The notes: generated from the letters alone by a model not told the origin. A DNA stretch of 64,000 nucleotides from Bacteroidota bacterium (GCA_022561875.1 JADFQJ010000007.1:3482-67481), one strand, 5' to 3'; counted from the first letter of the stretch, positions 2,478 to 64,000 are shown. Made by a program: numbers and translations.

Positions 2478-3152
2478 TCACCTCATATCAATAACTTCTA
2501 CATCCGGATGTTTTGCAGGATCGAACCGGAAGTAAGAATCTTCTAATACAATATCATGTTCAAACCGGGTGATGTCGATGATGTAGTGTATACCATCTTT
2601 ACCCATGTAGGTAACTGATTGCAGTAATAAATCATTCTTACTTATAAGAAGCTTTATAGATGAGTATTCTGAGTTCAGGTTCTTTGGAAAAAGATCAATA
2701 TAATATTGAATTCCATTTTTATTGTTCTGCTCATCAACTAATTTATACTTAAAATCTTCTTTATACATTGTAAAAAGGCCGGCAGGATTTGTAAGGAATG
2801 AACTGCCGATGTCAACGTCTTCTGCAGAATTGATATTTACTTCCTGTGCATCAGGAATATAGTTCCATACTGTCGTTTTGTCATAATAGGTAATATTATC
2901 CATTAATTCAAGTTTGAACATACCTTCTTTCAATGCAATATTACCATCAAATACCTCTTTTGTATCCTGTTGCAGATCAATAACAGTAAGTTGAAATGAT
3001 GCTTTTATAGTTTGAAATGATCTGTTCTTTTCAGCAAACTTGTCAAGTATGGCGCCGGCCTGTGGATCCTGCTGAGCATTTGATGATGCGAACAGAAATA
3101 TTGCAATAAGGGCTGTGAATAAAAATTTCATACGGTTTATTCTAAAAGACAT
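2478..3152 (-). CDS. lolA: LolA-like outer-membrane lipoprotein carrier protein
   Basis: 224-aa ORF with signal peptide MKFLFTALIAIFLFASSNAQ (ATG at 3131 is the likelier start). LolA-like N-terminal pattern. Lies directly downstream of ftsK, as is common in Bacteroidota. Confidence 0.7.
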   Translation of the reverse strand: MSFRINRMKFLFTALIAIFLFASSNAQQDPQAGAILDKFAEKNRSFQTIKASFQLTVIDLQQDTKEVFDGNIALKEGMFKLELMDNITYYDKTTVWNYIPDAQEVNINSAEDVDIGSSFLTNPAGLFTMYKEDFKYKLVDEQNNKNGIQYYIDLFPKNLNSEYSSIKLLISKNDLLLQSVTYMGKDGIHYIIDITRFEHDIVLEDSYFRFDPAKHPDVEVIDMR

Positions 3153-3222
3153 TTCGAACAGATTCTTCAGTAAAAAAAACTTTATTTCTCTTCTTATCGC
3201 CCCATCGCTCCATCGCTATATA

Positions 3223-5586
3223 TTACTGTTCAATATTCTTCAAAAACTGTTCCAATGTATATTCATCCGGGATAAGAACTTGTCTTGCCTTACTGCCCTC
3301 ATAAGGTCCGACGATTCTGGCGTTTTCAAGCTGGTCAATTATCCGTCCGGCGCGGTTATAACCAATAGAAAGTTTTCGCTGGATTAATGAGGTGGATCCT
3401 TGTTGGTGCAGAACAACCAGTTTTGCAGCCTCCTCAAAATAGGAATCTCTTTTTGTCAGGTCTGCTTCACCTGGTTCGCCTGTACGTTCATCTATATATT
3501 CAGGGAGGATCAATGCAGTGGGATATCCTTTCTGAGAGCTGATATATTCCGTCACCTTATCAATTTCAGATGTATCCAGATAAGCACATTGGATCCTTAT
3601 CAAATCGCTTCCTGCGGAAAGCAGCATATCTCCACGGCCTATGAGTTGATTGGCTCCGGTACTGTCAAGAATTGTCCTCGAATCAATCATTGATGAAACC
3701 CGGAATGCAATCCTTGCCGGGAAATTAGCTTTAATTACACCTGTAATAATATTGGTTGTAGGACGCTGAGTTGCAATAACCAGGTGTATTCCAATTGCCC
3801 GTCCCATTTGAGCCAGACGTGCCAGTGGGTTTTCTATCTCTTTGCCAGCAGTCATGATAAGGTCGGCAAATTCGTCAATTATCAGAATAAGATAGGGCAG
3901 GTAGCGATGACCTTTTTCCGGGTTAAGTTTTCTGTTTTTGAACTTTCCGTTATATTCCCTGATATTACGTACATGTGCAAGCTTAAGTAAGTCGTACCTT
4001 TGATCCATTTCTAAAGTCAGGGAATTAAGGGTATTAATAACTTTGTGAGTATTTGTTATAATTGGTTCTTCATCATTAGGAAGTTTTGCAAGAAAATGTT
4101 TTTCAATCTTCGAGTATAAAGTCAGTTCAACTTTTTTCGGGTCGATCATTATAAATTTGATCTCAGAAGGATGCTTTTTGTAAAGTAAAGAAGCAATAAT
4201 AACATTCAATCCGACTGATTTTCCCTGACCTGTCGCTCCTGCTATCAACAGGTGAGGCATTCTGGTAAGATCAAAAATATATGGTTCGTTCGAAATAGTT
4301 TTACCAAGAGCTACACCCAGCTCAAATTCCGATTCCCTGAATTTTTTTGAATTGAGCATAGATTTCATCGAAACGATCTCCGGATTCAGATTGGGTACTT
4401 CGATGCCAATGGTTCCTCTTCCCGGGATTGGAGCTATTATCCTGATGCCCAGGGCTGAAAGACTGAGGGCTATATCATCGTCAAGATTTCTGATTTTGGA
4501 TATGCGGATACCAGGAGCAGGAACAATCTCATATAGAGTCACTGTCGGACCGATTGTAGCTTTAATCTTGTCAATCTCGATATTATAGTTTCCCAGGGTT
4601 TCAACAATTTTATTCTTGTTGCTGATAAGTTCATCTTTAGTAACACGAGAATTCCTTGATTCGTAATCTTCAAGCAAGTCGGTACCGGGAATTCTATATG
4701 ATGGAAGATCAAGCGCAGGGTCATATGGCTGAGAGTCTATTTCTCCCAACCACTCATTTTCTGAGGATTTACGTTGTTCAACTGTCAATTCAATATCATC
4801 GGTTGTTCGTTCTGTCTTCTTTTCATTTTCATGCTGATCTTTATGCAGCTCTTTTGTCTGAAATTTGGTCATTTCATCATCATCTTTCCCAATATTGAAT
4901 CCGGAGAGAGGCTTTTCAACAGAATTGCCGCTCTCTAATTCATCCGGAGAGTACATAGCTTCAGTATTCTCATCAGATATTTTTTTCTTACTCCCGAAAA
5001 TATGTATAATGCCGCTGAATGAAAAAACAAAAAAAGCTGTAAGCAGAATTAATAATAAAAAGGCAGTTCCGGCTTTACCAAGAAATGCATTAAGCCAGTT
5101 GCTTATCAGGAATCCGTGCCCGCCTCCTAATCCGCTGCCAAGATAACCCCCTGAGTCACCAAACAGGTAAGAGAGGATAACCGAAAGAAGAATAATTGCA
5201 ATAAGTCCCGTTTTAACAGTTTTCCAAAGAGGGAGGATTTTTAGATTCAGCATCCTTAATCCCATAATAAAAAGTAAAAAGGGAATAAAAAAGGAAGTTA
5301 TACCAAACCATTTGTTAATAAGGAGATTTGAGAAGTATGCTCCTGTTTTACCCGACCAGTTCAACACCCGGATTTCAGAGCTTGAAAATGCTGACGACCA
5401 TTCAAAGCTCTGGTCGGTTTTCCAGGTAAAGAGGAATGAAATAAAAGCAAGGAGAAGGAAAAGTGCAAAGCCAATTAGAAACAAGCCGGATAGCAGTTTT
5501 ACCCTGTTGTCTTTGAAAATCCTTAACCTGGTTTTATTTGATTTTGTTATATCCTTTTTTCTTGAATCTTTATTTCGTTTCACCAT
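3223..5586 (-). CDS. ftsK: DNA translocase FtsK/SpoIIIE
   Basis: 787 aa. N-terminal multi-TM region, acidic linker, motor domain with Walker A GATGQGKS and IIDEFADL, C-terminal gamma winged-helix (LIQRKLSIGYNRAGRIIDQLE). Confidence 0.95.
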   Translation of the reverse strand: MVKRNKDSRKKDITKSNKTRLRIFKDNRVKLLSGLFLIGFALFLLLAFISFLFTWKTDQSFEWSSAFSSSEIRVLNWSGKTGAYFSNLLINKWFGITSFFIPFLLFIMGLRMLNLKILPLWKTVKTGLIAIILLSVILSYLFGDSGGYLGSGLGGGHGFLISNWLNAFLGKAGTAFLLLILLTAFFVFSFSGIIHIFGSKKKISDENTEAMYSPDELESGNSVEKPLSGFNIGKDDDEMTKFQTKELHKDQHENEKKTERTTDDIELTVEQRKSSENEWLGEIDSQPYDPALDLPSYRIPGTDLLEDYESRNSRVTKDELISNKNKIVETLGNYNIEIDKIKATIGPTVTLYEIVPAPGIRISKIRNLDDDIALSLSALGIRIIAPIPGRGTIGIEVPNLNPEIVSMKSMLNSKKFRESEFELGVALGKTISNEPYIFDLTRMPHLLIAGATGQGKSVGLNVIIASLLYKKHPSEIKFIMIDPKKVELTLYSKIEKHFLAKLPNDEEPIITNTHKVINTLNSLTLEMDQRYDLLKLAHVRNIREYNGKFKNRKLNPEKGHRYLPYLILIIDEFADLIMTAGKEIENPLARLAQMGRAIGIHLVIATQRPTTNIITGVIKANFPARIAFRVSSMIDSRTILDSTGANQLIGRGDMLLSAGSDLIRIQCAYLDTSEIDKVTEYISSQKGYPTALILPEYIDERTGEPGEADLTKRDSYFEEAAKLVVLHQQGSTSLIQRKLSIGYNRAGRIIDQLENARIVGPYEGSKARQVLIPDEYTLEQFLKNIEQ

Positions 5587-6463: not shown

Positions 6464-6498
6464 GTGAAACGTGAAATGTGAATCGTGAGTCGTGAATC
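6464..6498. repeat. 5 x 7-nt tandem array GTGAAAC/GTGAAAT/GTGAATC/GTGAGTC/GTGAATC
   Basis: Read directly. Same 7-mer core as the arms of the GTGAAAT hairpin elements. Confidence 0.9.
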
Positions 6499-7605: not shown

Positions 7606-7865
7606 AGAAGAGTTGAGTGGTTGAGTAAGTTGAGTGGGTGAGTAGGAAGAGAAAAGGTGAAGAGGGGAAAAGGAGAAAAAAAGATTAATGAATATCGATT
7701 AACGAATTATGAATTTTGAAGCGTTAGGTGTTAAGCGTTACGAGTTTACGGGTTTGAGTTACGGGTTATGGGTTATACTTTGTCCTCAGTAACCAGTGCC
7801 CAGTAACCAGCTGCAATCTCTTAATTCTAAACTCATAAACTTATTAAACTTATAAACAAAAAAGA

Positions 7866-18096: not shown

Positions 18097-18225
18097 TAAC
18101 CACTTTCTCATTCCGGCTCTGCCAGGAACGCCTTCGGCTCACTCTGGCAGGTCTTAACCGATTGTATGACCATTGTTTGACTGTTGTATGACCATTTGTA
18201 TGACTACCGTATGACTACCTAATGC

Positions 18226-18310
18226 CCCCAGTGAAATATGCTCCTTCCCCCGGTGAAATATTTTCGTACCTCAAATTTCACAGTGCAAGCGTCGCATTTC
18301 ACGGGGTAAA
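18226..18310. repeat. GTGAAAT-arm structured repeat element, nested/compound copy
   Basis: ccccaGTGAAATATGCtccttcccccgGTGAAATAttttcgtacctcaAATTTCACagtgcaagcgtcGCATTTCACggggtaaa. Outer and inner inverted repeats were read directly. Confidence 0.85.
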
Positions 18311-19120
18311 CTACTTAATGACTTCTTCCTTCTTTACTTGTTTCCAAACCCTGTCCATTTCAGGCAGGCTCAGATCTTCCAGTTTTTTTCCCTGTTGTGC
18401 AACAATTATTTCCATTTGCCGGAAACGCCGGATGAATTTTTGATTGGTACGTTCAAGAGAATTTTCCGGGTCGATTCCATACAGCCTGGCAGCATTGATA
18501 AGGCTAAAGAACAGATCGCCGAATTCTCCCTCCAGTTTTTCTTTACCATCATTCTCTTTGATATTTTCTTCCGATAGTTTGAGCAATTCTTCTTTTACCT
18601 CACCCATTTCCTCATTTATTTTTTCCCAGATTTCTGAGCGGTCTTTCCAATCGAAACCCACTCCGCGAACCTTTTCCTGCAAACGATTGGCTTTAACCAG
18701 TGCAGGGAGTGATTTGGGAATTCCTTCAAGCACTGATTTTTTTCCTTCACGGAGCTTGATCTTTTCCCAGTTTTCTTTTACCTCTTCTGCATCACTTACT
18801 TCAATATCTCCAAATACATGAGGATGCCGGTTTACCAGTTTTTTATTGATTGAATTCAGGACATCAGTTATATTGAATGTTCCGTTTTCAGAGCCAAGTT
18901 TGGCATAAAATACAATATGGAGCATCAGGTCGCCCAGTTCGTCTTTCACCTCCTCCGAATTTTTTTTCAGGATAGCATCTGCAAGCTCATATGTTTCTTC
19001 AATAGTCAATTTCCGTAAGCTTTCAAATGTTTGTTCACGGTCCCACGGACATTTCTCGCGCAACTTATCCATAATATCCAGCAATTCCTTAAATGCTGTG
19101 AGTCTTGTATCCTTTTTCAT
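18311..19120 (-). CDS. mazG: nucleoside triphosphate pyrophosphohydrolase MazG
   Basis: 269 aa. Two MazG repeats (CPWDREQT...EEAYE-type and ELGDLMLH / EFGDLFFS motifs). Confidence 0.9.
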   Translation of the reverse strand: MKKDTRLTAFKELLDIMDKLREKCPWDREQTFESLRKLTIEETYELADAILKKNSEEVKDELGDLMLHIVFYAKLGSENGTFNITDVLNSINKKLVNRHPHVFGDIEVSDAEEVKENWEKIKLREGKKSVLEGIPKSLPALVKANRLQEKVRGVGFDWKDRSEIWEKINEEMGEVKEELLKLSEENIKENDGKEKLEGEFGDLFFSLINAARLYGIDPENSLERTNQKFIRRFRQMEIIVAQQGKKLEDLSLPEMDRVWKQVKKEEVIK

Positions 19121-20000: not shown

Positions 20001-20966
20001 TTGATGAGCGAAAAGATTTTATATTTAGAGGATATCGATCCTGTAAACATTTACGGATCCAATAATAGTTTGTTGAATAAAATCATAGGTTCCTTTCCCA
20101 AACTGAAAATAATTGCAAGAGGTAGCGAAATTAAAGTTATTGGTGAGGAATCACTTATTGCTGAATTTGAGGAAAAATTTGAGAGACTTATTGAATTTTA
20201 CCTTAAATATAACAGATTGGAGGAGGCTGATATAGATACATTGTTTTTTGATTCTGCTATGCAGGTACATATAAAAAACGGAGATCTTGATGAAGTATTG
20301 ATATTTGGTAACAGAGGTCAGCCAATAAAGGCAAGGACGGTTAACCAGATAAAACTGGTGAAGGAGTTTTTCCTGAACGATCTGGTAATAGTAATCGGAC
20401 CTGCCGGTACGGGAAAGACTTATCTGGCAATAGCTATGGCTGTCAGGGCGTTACGAAACAAGGAGGTTGAAAAGATAATTCTCACCCGGCCTGCTGTTGA
20501 AGCTGGCGAGCATCTTGGATTTCTTCCGGGAGATGTTATGGAAAAACTGGAACCATATCTTCAGCCCCTGTATGATGCCCTGAAGGATATGATAACTGCA
20601 AAAAAACTGGCTGCCTATATCGATAATGAGATTATTCAAATAGCCCCCCTTGCGTATATGCGTGGAAGGACACTTGAAAATGCTGTTGTTATTTTAGATG
20701 AGGCTCAGAACTCTACGGTAAACCAGTTGAAAATGTTTCTGACAAGGATGGGACAATCGTCAAAATTTATAGTTACAGGTGATATTACGCAGATTGATCT
20801 TCCCGGAAAATCTGATTCAGGTCTGTGGCAGGCAGTAAATCTTCTCAAAGGAATAGATGGTATTTCAATTCTGGAGTTTGATGAACATGATATTGTACGT
20901 CACAAGTTGGTAAAGTCTATTGTGAGAGCTTATGATGAGAAAGAAAGGCAAAAAGGGAACCAGTAA
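20001..20966 (+). CDS. phoH: PhoH-like ATPase
   Basis: 321 aa (TTG at 20001; ATG at 20004 is likelier). Walker A GPAGTGKTYLA, ILDEAQN, GDITQIDLP. Confidence 0.92.
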   Translation: MMSEKILYLEDIDPVNIYGSNNSLLNKIIGSFPKLKIIARGSEIKVIGEESLIAEFEEKFERLIEFYLKYNRLEEADIDTLFFDSAMQVHIKNGDLDEVLIFGNRGQPIKARTVNQIKLVKEFFLNDLVIVIGPAGTGKTYLAIAMAVRALRNKEVEKIILTRPAVEAGEHLGFLPGDVMEKLEPYLQPLYDALKDMITAKKLAAYIDNEIIQIAPLAYMRGRTLENAVVILDEAQNSTVNQLKMFLTRMGQSSKFIVTGDITQIDLPGKSDSGLWQAVNLLKGIDGISILEFDEHDIVRHKLVKSIVRAYDEKERQKGNQ

Positions 20967-21027
20967 CCAGTAACCAGTAACCAGTAACAAGTAACCAGTA
21001 ACCAGTAACCAGTAACAAGTAATCAGT
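20958..21027. repeat. 10 x 7-nt tandem array AACCAGT (variants AACAAGT, AATCAGT); the phoH stop codon lies in unit 1
   Basis: Read directly. Units 1-4 aaccagt, 5 aacaagt, 6-8 aaccagt, 9 aacaagt, 10 aatcagt. Confidence 0.95.
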
Positions 21028-21073
21028 AAAAGCAAACTTATAAACTCATAAATCACAAAACTTATAACATATT

Positions 21074-22021: not shown

Positions 22022-22035
22022 AGTATAAGATTATA

Positions 22036-22140
22036 AGCCGGAAGCCGGAAGCCGGAAGTAAGAAGTAAGAAGTAAGAAGTAAGAAGTAAGAAGTAAGAAG
22101 TAAGAAGTAAGAAGTAAGAAGTAGGAAGAAAGAAGTAAGG
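22036..22140. repeat. 15-unit 7-nt tandem array: GGAAGCC x3 then GTAAGAA x9 then 3 degenerate units
   Basis: Read directly. Perfect GTAAGAA units start at 22058 and continue every 7 nt to 22114. Confidence 0.95.
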
Positions 22141-22190
22141 GGCTGAGGTTAAGCCAATTGTGATTCAACCAGTAACCAGCATCGTATTAC

Positions 22191-22260
22191 CACAGTGAAA
22201 TATGCTCCTTCCTCGCATTTCACCACAATGAAATAAAAAGAATTTCATGGGGTAAACGTG
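22191..22260. repeat. GTGAAAT-arm structured repeat element, tandem two-hairpin copy
   Basis: caCAGTGAAATATGCtccttcctcGCATTTCACcacaATGAAATaaaaagaATTTCATggggtaaac. Confidence 0.85.
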
Positions 22261-22284
22261 GCGAACATTTAACGTAATACCTTT

Positions 22285-25627: not shown

Positions 25628-25901
25628 TTTATACAGGGTGCTTAAGTTCAGTTTTTAACCAAAGTAAACAATTTTCAGTTAATAAGTTTTGCGACCCTAA
25701 ATTTTAATATAAATATTTTATTCTGCAAAGATAATGTAATGTATTAGTTTGCAAATAACCAAAATTAGTTTAAAATATTAATCAAATATTGCTTTTTTAA
25801 TTACTTTATGAAGCTATGTTTATAAGAAGTGTTTACTTTGTACCGGGTATTATTGATTATGATTTTTTATTGGGTTCCGGAATTCAGAAACAAATTGATT
25901 T

Positions 25902-27501: not shown

Positions 27502-27783
27502 CTATTTTCATGTTTTCCACACTTTTTCAGCAGTCTGGCCGCTTACTGTAAATTAATAATTATTCTTTTTTATGCGATTTTACTTTTAACTTTAACCAAC
27601 TTTTGCTTTTGTCAGACAATAAATGTTTTTGTCTTGCAGTTTTATGCGTAGTCTAAAATTTAATCACGGCATTAGTTACATGATTATTTTTATGAACTTT
27701 GAATAGCCTTGCCGGAACACCGCATTACTGCAACACTGCAACATCGCAACACAATTCCTAAACCACAACTCTTAACCCGTAAC

Positions 27784-27825
27784 CACAGTGAAATATGCTC
27801 CTTCGTCGCATTTCACGTGGCAAGC
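27784..27825. repeat. GTGAAAT-arm structured repeat element, simple copy
   Basis: caCAGTGAAATATGCtccttcgtcGCATTTCACgtggcaagc. Confidence 0.85.
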
Positions 27826-37426: not shown

Positions 37427-37583
37427 TGATTACTGGTTACTTGATACTTGTTACTGGTTACTGGTTTGCCACATTTCACAGTGGTCACTAGTCTTTGAAC
37501 CTTGAACTTTTCATTCTTCTTTACTCAACTACTCACCTTACTCACCTACTTACCTCTCTTCTCCTCTTTTGCCTTGACACTAG

Positions 37584-38330: not shown

Positions 38331-38819
38331 AATGGTTATTGTTAATTAGTTATGATTATTTTTCTTGCATCGATCATGTTTTAAAAGTAAACGGGCATTT
38401 GTACAGAAGAATAATGGAACAGTCGAAGAATGGAATAATCTGGCTATATCATCATTCCATTATTCCAACATTCCTTTATGTACTTTATTAACTAATCAAA
38501 AATAGTATCACTGCAACACTGCCCATACTCTCCAGGACATGAATCAGTTTTTTGTATTTTTCTGTATGTGCCATTTACTTCATTACCTCATTATTAATTT
38601 TCATAGCAACACTGGTTACTGGCTTGCCCAGTGAAACGCGACGATAGGAGCTGTTTCACCGGGGTTGCTGGGTGCAGGTTTTTAACTTCAAACATTTTTC
38701 AAGCCTCAAAGACAAGGCATGCCTTGTCTCTTCAAGCATTTTCACACTTGAAACTAATTCTCACTTACTTCTTCCTACTCACCTTACTCAACCACTTAAC
38801 TTACTCAACTACTTACCTC

Positions 38820-38859
38820 CCTTTTGCCTTCTGCCTTCTGCCTTTTGCCTTCTGTCTTC
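38820..38859. repeat. about 5.7 x 7-nt tandem array CCTTTTG/CCTTCTG abutting the larC stop codon
   Basis: Read directly. The array ends at the nucleotide before the larC stop triplet (38860-38862). Confidence 0.9.
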
Positions 38860-45096: not shown

Positions 45097-45216
45097 GATC
45101 TGTGGCTTTATTAGTGTATTAGAATATTAATGTTTATGGCTTGATAGTGTCAAATTTCATTATACTTCGCATTTTTTAAATCAATTTGCGAAGCTATGTT
45201 TTTAATTATATAAAGA

Positions 45217-48609: not shown

Positions 48610-49007
48610 GTTTTAACCGGATTTTAAAGGGTGCAAAAGGATTTTGCGAGCGCACCCTGACCAGAGTATCATGGGGAGTGAAGCGACTCTTGCCCTCCGT
48701 AACACAGTGAAGGTGGGACGCAAACTCCCAAAAACAATCAGAATGCCAATATAAAATGGACTGTCATGAGCTTTACGAAAAGCCATTAAAGATTACTTCA
48801 CTTCATTCGCAATATTTCGTGTACTTATTATGCTTTAACCAGTAACCAGTAATTTCACTAAATTGCTTGTGATCCCTGATTTTATAAGTAAAAGACTGTC
48901 AGAGTATTATGATGTATTACCAAAGGGCTCAGATAAAAAAGTTATAATACATACAGATTGGCATCAAATTTGAATTTTAATAAACAGAACCCATTAAATC
49001 AAGAGTT

Positions 49008-49685
49008 ATGCAACGTTTAGCAATTATAATTTCAGTTATACCACTATTATTTTCGGCATGTGTTGAAAGACCTGAAGCAGGATTTTTTACTTCAAATGTT
49101 GTGATCGAGGTAGGAGAACCGGTCTATTTTACAAATAATTCATTTGATGCTGTTTATTTTGAATGGGATTTTGGTGACGGTTCTTTTACTGATGAGCCTA
49201 ACCCAATTCATTATTATGATGCATCAGGCACTTTTAATGTAACTTTGAGCGCCTGGTCAAAAAATGATTATGTTGATAGAGCTTATCAGGATATTACCGT
49301 GCTTTTTCCAACAACGCTTGAGGTAATCGTTCAGGAGTATTATGATGAATATTTAGTGCAAGGTGCTAATGTAAGGCTATATCCAACGTATGAAGACTGG
49401 CTTGATGAAACAAATATGGTTGCTGAAGGAAACACTAACCAGAATGGTAAAGTGATTTTCTCAAGATTACAACCTGTTGTCTATTATGCCGATGTATGGG
49501 AATCGGAACACAATAACTTTACATTAGCCGACGAAGATGTGGATTGGATTAGGATTCCCCGGTTAGTAGCAAACGATATAAATAGTTTTGTTGCCTGGGT
49601 TGATTATGTTCCTAATAAAGGTATTGAACGTGACAGGAATAGTAAGATACCGGCAAAAAACAGAAAATTCTTCGAAAAAAGGTAA
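49008..49685 (+). CDS. PKD-domain lipoprotein
   Basis: 225 aa. Lipobox LLFSAC, PKD signature FEWDFGDGSFTDEPNPIHYYDASGTFNVTL, second beta-sandwich-like half. Confidence 0.7.
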   Translation: MQRLAIIISVIPLLFSACVERPEAGFFTSNVVIEVGEPVYFTNNSFDAVYFEWDFGDGSFTDEPNPIHYYDASGTFNVTLSAWSKNDYVDRAYQDITVLFPTTLEVIVQEYYDEYLVQGANVRLYPTYEDWLDETNMVAEGNTNQNGKVIFSRLQPVVYYADVWESEHNNFTLADEDVDWIRIPRLVANDINSFVAWVDYVPNKGIERDRNSKIPAKNRKFFEKR

Positions 49686-63676: not shown

Positions 63677-63939
63677 CCGGATACAAATTTTTGCCTTTTT
63701 TCTGTTGCTTCTGTCAGAAAATAATACGTTTCATCATAAATTTATAATTATGTCTGAAATACAATGCCATCTGTATAAGATTTCGATTTAGCTGGTAAAA
63801 ATATAAAAAAGATCATATAATTAATTAAAGAAATTTAATATTTTTGTATCCCATAAAAGAAAGTATGAATTATGAGTGATGAATGATGAAAAAAGAGATG
63901 CTTGAAATTTCTTTAAAACTTCATACATAATCCTTCAAC

Positions 63940-64000
63940 CACAGTGAAATATGCTCCTTCCCCAGTGAAATACTTTCGTACCTCAAATTTCACGGGGCAA
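63940..64000. repeat. GTGAAAT-arm structured repeat element, copy truncated by the window end
   Basis: caCAGTGAAATATGCtccttccccaGTGAAATActttcgtacctcaAATTTCACggggcaa. The inner hairpin is nearly identical to that of the 18226 copy. Confidence 0.8.

Follow-up and report, generated by a model that had tools for sequence, protein, structure and literature searches.

Nested hairpin modules that look like relatives of REP-type mobile DNA in the spacers of uncultured sediment Bacteroidota

The 64,000-nucleotide stretch analyzed here in its entirety (hereafter the window; GCA_022561875.1, JADFQJ010000007.1:3482-67481) derives from a metagenomic population and represents a low-GC (0.35-0.40) part of the chromosome of a Bacteroidota bacterium, encoding among its housekeeping genes DUF5606/DUF6852, MazG, PhoH, SAICAR synthase and TilS. 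Its intergenic DNA harbors a family of short hairpin-forming modules, named A to H and J, that are found inserted in one another and in arrays of tandem heptamers; the window holds five members of this family and one remnant. The family is apparently undescribed and looks like a relative of mobile hairpins of the repetitive extragenic palindrome (REP) type.

The four clear copies listed in a first-pass annotation of the window share the 19-mer CAGTGAAATATGCTCCTTC, which matches exactly at 18229, 22193, 27786 and 63942, always on the + strand. Its expected count in the 64-kb window is 0.02, and none of 100 dinucleotide-preserving shuffles reaches four occurrences. The window was searched with a covariance model trained on 28 distinct copies, against which the simplest copy, at 27783-27825 (+), scores 74.8 bits. 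This copy defines the unoccupied module A, a unit of 43 nt with the sequence C-CAC-A-GTGAAAT-AT-GC-tccttcgtc-GC-ATTTCAC-GTGG-CAAGC. The foot comprises 4 bp and the upper stem 7 bp, with a single bulged A between them; the upper stem leads through a small internal loop to two more pairs and a 9-nt loop, and a 5-nt tail ends the unit. The copy is flanked by the array units CCGTAAC and CCGAAAC and coincides exactly with the consensus, which recurs in eight or more further species genomes.

The remaining copies depart from this simple state in an orderly way. At 18226-18311 (+), the 5′ half of module A (18226-18247; foot CCCC, bulged A, arm GTGAAAT, ATGC and loop start TCCTTC) is separated from its 3′ half (18291-18311; GTCGC-ATTTCAC-GGGG and tail TAAAC) by a complete module B (18248-18290; CCCCGGTGAAATA-ttttcgtacctca-AATTTCAC-AGTG-CAAGC, with a degenerate foot; 36.7 bits), which occupies the A loop between TCCTTC and GTCGC and bears out the earlier impression of one unit inserted into another. 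The first C of this copy is assignable neither to the element nor to the flank, and its last base overlaps the MazG gene that converges on it (18311-19120, − strand), as part of the stop codon. The same A+B architecture recurs at the end of the window, where the first-pass annotation had recognized the second hairpin of the 18226 copy: the 5′ half of A (63939-63960, +) is followed by a module B that is cut at the window end (63961-64000, +; covariance-model match from 63960, 36.7 bits), and contig L127 supplies the 23 nt by which the composite extends beyond the window (...GGGGCAAGC-GTCGCATTTAACGTGGCTGGC). The copy at 22190-22266 (+) had been read as two hairpins in tandem, but is really a module A with a different module, F, inserted in it. 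Module A runs up to its 3′ shoulder (22190-22223; CCAC-A-GTGAAATATGC-tccttcctc-GCATTTCAC, with a core match from 22194 at 40.4 bits), F follows (22224-22257; CACA-ATGAAAT-aaaaaga-ATTTCAT-GGGG and tail TAAAC; 16.5 bits), and the 3′ foot GTGG and tail CGAAC of the host A complete the element (22258-22266), so that F sits between GCATTTCAC and the A foot in an A+F composite. The ending GGGGTAAAC ascribed to both copies is accordingly the foot and tail of A at 18303-18311, but the foot and tail of F at 22249-22257.

Among the weaker relatives proposed for the window, that at 38622-38664 (−) proved to be a true, diverged module A (CCCC-G-GTGAAAC-agctcctatcgtcgc-GTTTCAC-TGGG-CAAGC; 51.7 bits), surrounded by CCAGCAAC/CAGTAAC arrays and carrying a compensatory T:A to C:G change in its arms (GTGAAAC/GTTTCAC). 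The stretch at 37464-37484 (−), where CCACTGTGAAATGTGGCAAAC is followed by CAGTAAC units, is at best a weak, possibly centrally deleted remnant (11.7 bits, E 0.99), and the third candidate, at 48700-48735, gave no match to the covariance model and is not a member.

Modules A, B, C, D, E and F, together with the rarer G, H and J, are built on a common plan, in which a CC..GG stem is followed by a single-stranded 5-nt tail of the form YRRRC (CAAGC, CAGGC, TGAAC or TAAAC) in a unit of about 33-56 nt, with one bulged base on the 5′ arm in A, B and F. Every module forms a single hairpin from its two halves, with no separate left-end and right-end hairpins. As single-stranded DNA, module A is predicted to fold at −8.1 kcal/mol (z = −2.8), and the composites are predicted to form nested hairpins with z between −3.6 and −3.9. 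The A stem is paired in 96.7% of cells, a figure that falls to 21-49% in slid controls, and double-sided changes occur at three of its pairs (A:U 18 / C:G 9; C:G 22 / U:A 3; U:A 27 / C:G 1). The arms also compensate between modules, reading GTGAAAT/ATTTCAC in A and B, ATGAAAT/ATTTCAT in F and GTGAAAC/GTTTCAC in D and in the 38622 copy. These data support the notion that the hairpin matters, as DNA or as RNA; stem covariation would be equally expected of a DNA hairpin recognized by a protein, and it therefore does not decide in favor of an RNA family.

Scanning a collection of species genomes with an 18-mer key yielded at least 101 loci, 13 of which are chance matches in the coding DNA of unrelated bacteria; among the matches listed, about 89 are true copies, distributed over 20 species-level uncultured metagenome-assembled genomes (MAGs). 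The first-pass annotation had staked its case for a structured repeat family on additional genomic copies, on covariation of the stems and on the absence of a match to a described family, and all three came out in its favor, the observed covariation score of the A stem being reached by none of 500 shuffles. Carriers, of which there are at least 20 species, are sediment Bacteroidota with the copies in their spacer DNA, nearly all of them labeled Bacteroidota, Bacteroidetes, 'Rikenellaceae' or 'Bacteroides sp.' (CSMAG series, C2.bin.40, binchicken bins, SM23_62_1). Two A+B elements in CAGTAAC arrays (L022 and L079) were also observed in CSMAG_1237, a MAG labeled Candidatus Neomarinimicrobiota, and reflect either a binning error or transfer outside the Bacteroidota.

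Parsing of these copies reveals a strict grammar of nesting. Module A stands alone in 32 copies and carries B in 31, B and C in 14, B, C and D in three, B and D in two and B and E in two, with more combinations involving F, and two loci (L041 and L091) reach five levels of nesting, A > B > (D, C > J > G). Module B, a unit of 42-43 nt (CCTGGTGAAATA-ttttcgtacctca-AATTTCAC-AGGG-CAGGC), lies within the A loop directly 3′ of TATGCTCCTTC in all 57 copies, its landing word being CTCCTTC, or CTCCT(T/A)C in its general form. Its presence is independent of the foot variant of the host A, with 38 occupied and 25 unoccupied CCAC feet, 10 and 4 CCCC feet and 2 and 2 CCAT feet. Modules C, D and E land after AAATTT(C/T/A)AC of B, that is, at the B 3′ shoulder, or after the tail of D. 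Module F follows GCATTTCAC of an A-type host in five of six cases in the genome scan, the sixth being located after AAATTTAAC of B; in an independent scan of metagenome contigs, keyed on F to avoid the bias of the first search key, it follows GCATTTCAC of an A-type host in 14 of 14. The hosts of F include a further A subfamily, A″ (CCCCTGTAGAAATArCTCCTAC joined to GTCGCATTTCACAGGGCAGGC), which is outside the reach of the first key.

Across all these combinations, nested modules invariably lie 3′ of a C and in the orientation of their host, and shoulder sites fall on the 3′ strand of the host stem, exactly facing the bulged base. In more than 90 nested insertions, excising the insert in silico restores the host, with no duplicated bases except one ambiguous C. 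Module tails double as landing sites, as when C follows D or a further module follows H. The inner part of D and G is found in either orientation, with the palindromic stem unchanged. None of the modules B, C, D and E was seen outside its host modules among the parsed copies.

The outermost module, A, obeys a comparable rule in the DNA around it. In 79 copies, the base preceding A is C in 76, the next one out is A in 56 and C in 16, and the third is a purine in 70. The 7-8 nt to the left of A match those to its right perfectly in 16 of the 79 copies and with at most one mismatch in 51; with up to two mismatches, the units 5′ and 3′ of A agree in 68, compared with 15.6 expected from random pairing, and the heptads before and after A both follow a ..AAC pattern. 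This agreement of flanking units indicates that A sits in register between the units of NNNN(A/G)AC arrays, with CAGTAAC, TTTTG(A/C)C, CGAGAAC, CCAGCAC and ACTCATC among the host array units. The landing rules can be condensed to (A/G)(A/C)C for A and ATTT(C/T/A)AC for C, D, E and F. The first-pass annotation had connected the hairpins to the heptamers through the likeness of the arm 7-mer to the array at 6464-6498 (GTGAAAC GTGAAAT GTGAATC ...). That array is one among many heptamer arrays in the window and no likeness of the arm is needed; the real link is the position of A in register inside the arrays.

The arrays themselves are a pervasive feature of the spacers. Those of period 7 or 8 cover about 13% of the intergenic DNA of the window and 0.2% of its coding DNA, and Tandem Repeats Finder (TRF) assigns about 1.2 kb of arrays to 9.6 kb of intergenic sequence against 0.1 kb within 54 kb of coding sequence. 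Copy number varies among near-identical strains, the unit AAGCCGG being present three times in the window and four times in L121. The 22190 copy is preceded by a heptamer array of the NNNNRAC type (22167-22189, +; AACCAGT AACCAGC ATCGTATTA-C), and the 18226 copy by a tandem array with units of about 11 nt (18161-18219, +; TGTATGACCAT / GTATGACTACC). We also observed that most array units read NNNN(A/G)AC on one strand, and that within a spacer they often lie on the − strand in the left part and on the + strand in the right part; further examples are located at 20958-21029, 22035-22139, 7611-7857 and 38775-38859, and at 2460-2560 of L121.

Comparison of loci across genomes provides signs of movement. 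Loci L064 and L089, from different species, have their flanks and module A in common, with F present in one and not in the other. Some spacers syntenic with the window contain, in L053, L010 and L029, elements that are missing from the window itself; the 18226 element is in turn missing from L053, where the GTATGAC array is kept. Several occupancy states, empty and filled, occur side by side within single genomes. Two loci have lost internal segments, with the B tail joined to the flank in L052 (− strand, ~3050-3200) and the E tail joined to the A foot in L087 (− strand, ~4180-4300); junctions exactly at a tail or an insertion site are to be expected if such positions are cut by an enzyme. Among near-identical contigs, no strain-level insertion polymorphism was detected at 18226, 22190 or 63939, the differences being limited to one single-nucleotide polymorphism and one change in array copy number. 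The exact 43-nt A consensus is present in at least 8 species despite the genes syntenic with the window being only 80-89% identical, which implies constraint by a recognizing machinery. In separate observations, short-read contigs of the population sampled by the window (L105-L107, L122-L126, L128-L131) end in or beside modules and arrays. Proteins identical to those of the window are encoded on ENA and Logan contigs, many of which stop within the repeats.

Taken as a whole, the mobility of the modules is well supported, and we infer that an HUH/Y1-type enzyme lies behind it. The reading that we favor, with a probability of roughly 0.55, is that the modules are non-autonomous, REP-like hairpin DNA elements moved in trans by a single-strand enzyme of this type. 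The combination of insertion without duplication, absence of terminal inverted repeats, a bulged hairpin with cut sites beside it and AT-rich targets ending in ...AC fits such an enzyme better than it fits a double-strand transposase, a recombinase or a retro-element. The occurrence of three Y1 subclasses in Bacteroidetes (1.2, 2.4 and 2.6; PMC6006769) and of an IS200-like Y1 gene 3 kb from an A+B element in L079 adds to the plausibility of such an enzyme. In the mechanism we envisage, a trans-encoded HUH/Y1-type single-strand endonuclease would bind the folded, bulged hairpin, cut on the 3′ side of two cytosines, the one at the left border and the one ending the tail, and insert the strand 3′ of a comparable '..AC' site that is exposed and single-stranded; array units, loops, shoulders and module tails might all provide sites of this kind. 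Composites would stay mobile while the outer A ends are intact, and since these ends would suffice for mobility, the inner modules could decay. Any cellular role, such as RNA end stabilization or protein binding, would be secondary.

Several lines of evidence weigh against this reading. No Y1/HUH gene was found in the window or, over about 0.7 Mb of carrier DNA, adjoining any of the modules, in searches with an HUH...Y regular expression and by phmmer with Escherichia coli RayT against 1536 open-reading frames (ORFs) of the carrier loci; the first-pass annotation had likewise seen no RAYT or other transposase in the window, and the RayT search over the carrier ORFs returned a single antisense artefact in L055. 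The one real Y1 gene encountered (L079 3472-3943, − strand; PF01797 at 1.5e-27, IS200/IS605 NF033573) lies 3 kb from an A+B element and is flanked by small conserved hairpins different from the modules, AACTCCnnnnGGAGTT upstream and AACCCCnnnnGGGGTT downstream, and relatives of it with 93% identity reside in module-free loci. On account of these flanking hairpins, of the relatives in loci without modules and of the very large size of its Bacteroidota family (at least 7971 relatives), this gene is not assigned to the modules as their mobilizer. Its motifs (DH[IV]H / WQ / Y---Q--HH-like) are those of Y1 subclass 1.2 of Quentin et al. (PMC6006769), a subclass confined to Cyanobacteria and Bacteroidetes for which no cognate repeats were reported; the other Bacteroidetes subclasses are 2.4, with 'double foot' REPs, and 2.6, with 'atypical secondary structures' such as GCTAG plus a GC-rich stem (PMC6006769). 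The L079 gene also lies within repeats of about 200-380 nt (L079 3000-4300), and its flanking hairpins, considered also around the Y1 genes of L132-L138, recur in another organism beside a gas-vesicle cluster; subclass 1.2 may have REP-like partners of its own.

The modules also depart from what REPs would lead one to anticipate. The GT[AG]G or CGTC tag that REPs carry on the 5′ side, 0-2 nt from the foot, is absent: on either strand, the 5′ end of a module reads CCAC, CCCC or CCAT, GTGG appears solely as the 3′ foot strand, where it covaries to GGGG or ATGG, and CGTC occurs only inside the A loop. Nor do the modules form the inverted doublets known as BIMEs or REPINs, copies being single, nested in the same orientation or in direct tandem (L021, L113). 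IS608-type elements prefer the lagging-strand template, and by the noisy proxy of local GC skew, on pieces of at most 8 kb, no strand bias was detected for the modules, with 34 of 79 loci on the G-rich and 45 on the C-rich strand. Within the window, where cumulative GC skew rises and local skew is a weak proxy, four copies are on the + strand and one on the − strand; given the lack of preference over the 79 loci, this excess is probably due to chance.

A further set of contrary observations concerns the independence of the nested insertions. Occupied B shoulders read TTT(T/A)AC, deviating from TTTCAC, in 13 of 23 cases, compared with 3 of 28 empty ones (p = 0.0007), and the TTTTAC shoulder is found in five of six D-bearing composites. 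This enrichment indicates that many composites are probably clonal lineages spread as whole units, and that independent nested events are probably fewer than raw counts suggest, with at least three for F. The same data feed the most serious alternative, which we regard as possible but doubtful. It holds that the only truly mobile unit is the outer A, either by itself or within a composite, that nested insertions occurred once or a few times, and that the occupancy states arose by amplification of whole composites, with ectopic gene conversion or recombination among hundreds of dispersed A copies and hairpin-mediated deletion adding further states, so that the inner modules need no specificity of their own. 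It accounts for the confinement of B, C, D and E to their hosts and for the biased shoulders, and it gains from the tendency of A copies with a CCCC foot to hold the GATGAAATG...CAAGC variant of B and from the decay of inner B feet in 9 of 23 occupied against 4 of 28 empty cases (p = 0.06). It sits poorly, however, with the presence of F in three hosts (A, the A″ subfamily and B), with homology arms of just ~21 nt per side for conversion of B, and with the landing of modules after the tails of other modules, and it leaves unexplained the end architecture common to all modules (CC...GG and YRRRC, 3′ of a C). An enzyme for A would still be required, so that this alternative refines the model of trans-mobilized hairpins without replacing it.

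We consider it unlikely that the modules are primarily structured-RNA genes or transcript parts, be they 3′-end stabilizers, terminators like REP RNAs or small regulatory RNAs. The covarying stems and stable predicted folds, the extreme conservation of sequence across species and the position of several window copies after gene ends would all agree with such a role. The first-pass annotation had in fact located three of four copies at gene 3′ ends, but this bias is not general, as the 64 copies with two flanking genes comprise 21 convergent, 13 divergent and 30 tandem arrangements. Nearly all copies are intergenic, six 'inside ORF' calls being contig-edge or start-extension artefacts, and their orientation is random with respect to the upstream gene, which is on the same strand in 38 cases and on the opposite strand in 35. 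No T-run follows the hairpins of the window copies, where CAAGC and array units are found instead, and Rfam 15 returned no match at the gathering score in the window and none at E<=1 over 18100-18400. Random orientation, the lack of a T-run and the lack of an Rfam match speak against the modules being primarily a sense-specific RNA element or a terminator, as do presence and absence at orthologous loci and nested insertions that disrupt an inner hairpin. Intrinsic terminators in particular were rejected for want of a T-run and in view of the random orientation and of the 13 copies between divergent genes.

That the modules are classical miniature inverted-repeat transposable elements (MITEs), derived by deletion from insertion sequences with a DDE transposase, moving by cut-and-paste and flanked by 7-bp target-site duplications in the guise of heptamers, is very improbable, because, although the two halves of A do form inverted repeats and the flanking 7-8 nt often match, the flanking units are part of longer arrays on both sides, more than 90 nested insertions lack any duplication beyond the ambiguous C, the symmetry of the inverted repeats is upset by a 5-nt tail that only one end carries, the modules (34-56 nt) are far below the size of MITEs and no transposase with matching ends was found in the loci examined. 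Of the REP/MITE-like label given in the first-pass annotation, the REP-like part is supported, the elements being dispersed, structured and intergenic, and the MITE part, in its classical sense, is not. Integron attC sites (no cassettes and no R″/R′ core pairs), insertion by a tyrosine or serine recombinase (no duplicated core) and retro-insertion (no truncations and no A-tails) were also rejected, and no significance was attached to the likeness between CACAGTG and the V(D)J heptamer.

A broader and distinctly speculative extension of the trans-mobilization model would make hairpins and heptamer arrays two products of one single-strand cut-and-join enzyme acting 3′ of '..(A/G)AC', a genome-wide system for sculpting intergenic DNA shared by sediment Bacteroidota, heterocystous cyanobacteria with their STRR and SDR and Beggiatoaceae with their TAACTGA arrays. 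Such an enzyme would cut at the ends of array units, at module tails and at shoulders, leading to expansion and contraction of arrays by whole units and to the stacking of hairpins. Its sharing among clades might have come about by horizontal transfer, and one of the Y1 subclasses limited to Cyanobacteria and Bacteroidetes would be one candidate.

Three other features of the spacers were recorded along the way. The region at 48610-48840, upstream of a gene at 49008, is non-coding, contains GC-rich stems and is 85% identical to positions 36-154 of L049, from another species, with the surrounding spacer DNA not conserved and no Rfam match at E<=1; the region may represent an RNA or leader not described so far. 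A 27-nt motif, TTTTTAATTACTTTGCGAAnCTATRTT, occurs three times just upstream of genes (58-84, 25794-25820 and 45174-45200) and may be a promoter-type signal. Finally, the reverse complement of L127 contains, ~150-500 nt past window position 64000 and directly downstream of the 63939 composite, two sequences (GCCCAGATGGCGGAATTGGTAGACGCG...) that by their appearance look like tRNA genes, with ATGAATG-type arrays between them.

If the modules are indeed mobile hairpins moved in trans, they constitute a natural record of target choice by very small mobile elements, since each module sits at one exact nucleotide of another and dozens of filled and empty sites thereby define borders and target without experiment. 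They would also extend REP-like mobile DNA to uncultured sediment Bacteroidota, with CC...GG and YRRRC ends that, lacking GTAG, would escape existing REP finders, and would supply a concrete substrate for probing the function of orphan Bacteroidetes Y1/HUH subclasses, while linking the intergenic heptamer arrays, for which an explanation has long been lacking, to a landing register that is defined. In practical terms, modules and arrays fragment the short-read assemblies of this clade, and the modules could be used as strain markers.

Comparison with known systems places the modules near several families. In behavior, the nearest analogue appears to be the SDR/STRR system of Nostoc. Elhai and co-workers reportedly described in 2008, in Nostoc and Anabaena, SDR4-6 as repeats of tens of nucleotides inserted precisely in hairpin-forming host repeats and in each other; the SDR1-8 families of Nostocaceae reportedly span 21-27 nt, and the STRR are intergenic tandem heptamers with a CAGT core, in which the spacers of these genomes are rich. 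We know of no enzyme for the Nostoc SDRs. Compared with the SDRs, the modules belong to another phylum, are unrelated in sequence and form complete hairpins on the CC...GG and tail plan. The arrays have a separate counterpart in the intergenic direct repeats of the heptamer TAACTGA reported in Beggiatoaceae, Cyanobacteria and a few Bacteroidetes, with mechanism unknown (MacGregor 2015, PMC4679880); both consist of intergenic heptamers ending in ..TAAC in the same register, with a patchy distribution that includes Bacteroidetes, but that study describes arrays alone, without hairpin modules, and in the present genomes it is in the arrays that module A lands.

With the REP/BIME/REPIN and RAYT systems of E. 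coli and Pseudomonas (PMC6006769, PMC3116915, PMC3733652) the modules share short imperfect palindromes (20-65 nt in REPs) with a bulge in the stem, an extragenic location in many copies (five in the 64-kb window), conservation across species, absence of target duplication and a capacity to cluster. The movement of REPs is generally ascribed to a single-strand HUH enzyme that acts in trans and recognizes the folded hairpin, as we propose for the modules. Unlike REPs, the modules carry a conserved 3′ tail YRRRC and a covarying foot CC(A/C)(C/T), nest strictly at sites exact to the nucleotide, up to five deep, in a context of heptamer arrays, and have no cognate RAYT in the window and the ~0.7 Mb of carrier loci. 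Their sequences are also distinct from published repeats: the REP tables of PMC6006769 hold no GTGAAAT or ATTTCAC repeats and nothing module-like, a BLAST search of plasmid and phage collections with the A+B composite gave no match, neither A nor B has an exact counterpart in the viral contigs scanned, and a full-text literature search for module strings retrieved no paper.

The ends of IS200/IS605 elements and their gene-less derivatives (PATEs) offer the other close parallel, in that both they and the modules lack terminal inverted repeats and target duplications (mechanism in PMC6006769). Insertion has a fixed orientation, leaves no duplication and takes place on the 3′ side of a short, AT-rich target word with AC at its end, which for the modules is TTCAC, TTTAC, TTAAC or GTAAC. 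For IS608, the target word is TTAC. At the right end, the cut falls a few bases beyond the hairpin, on its 3′ side; for the modules this cut is proposed. Each module differs in having one hairpin in place of separate left-end and right-end hairpins, with its left border at the hairpin foot, and no strand bias was detected by the GC-skew proxy and no transposase-bearing parent element was seen. Lacking the 5′ tag and the doublets of REPs and the two hairpins of IS200/IS605 ends, the modules appear to work like both families while being a member of neither.

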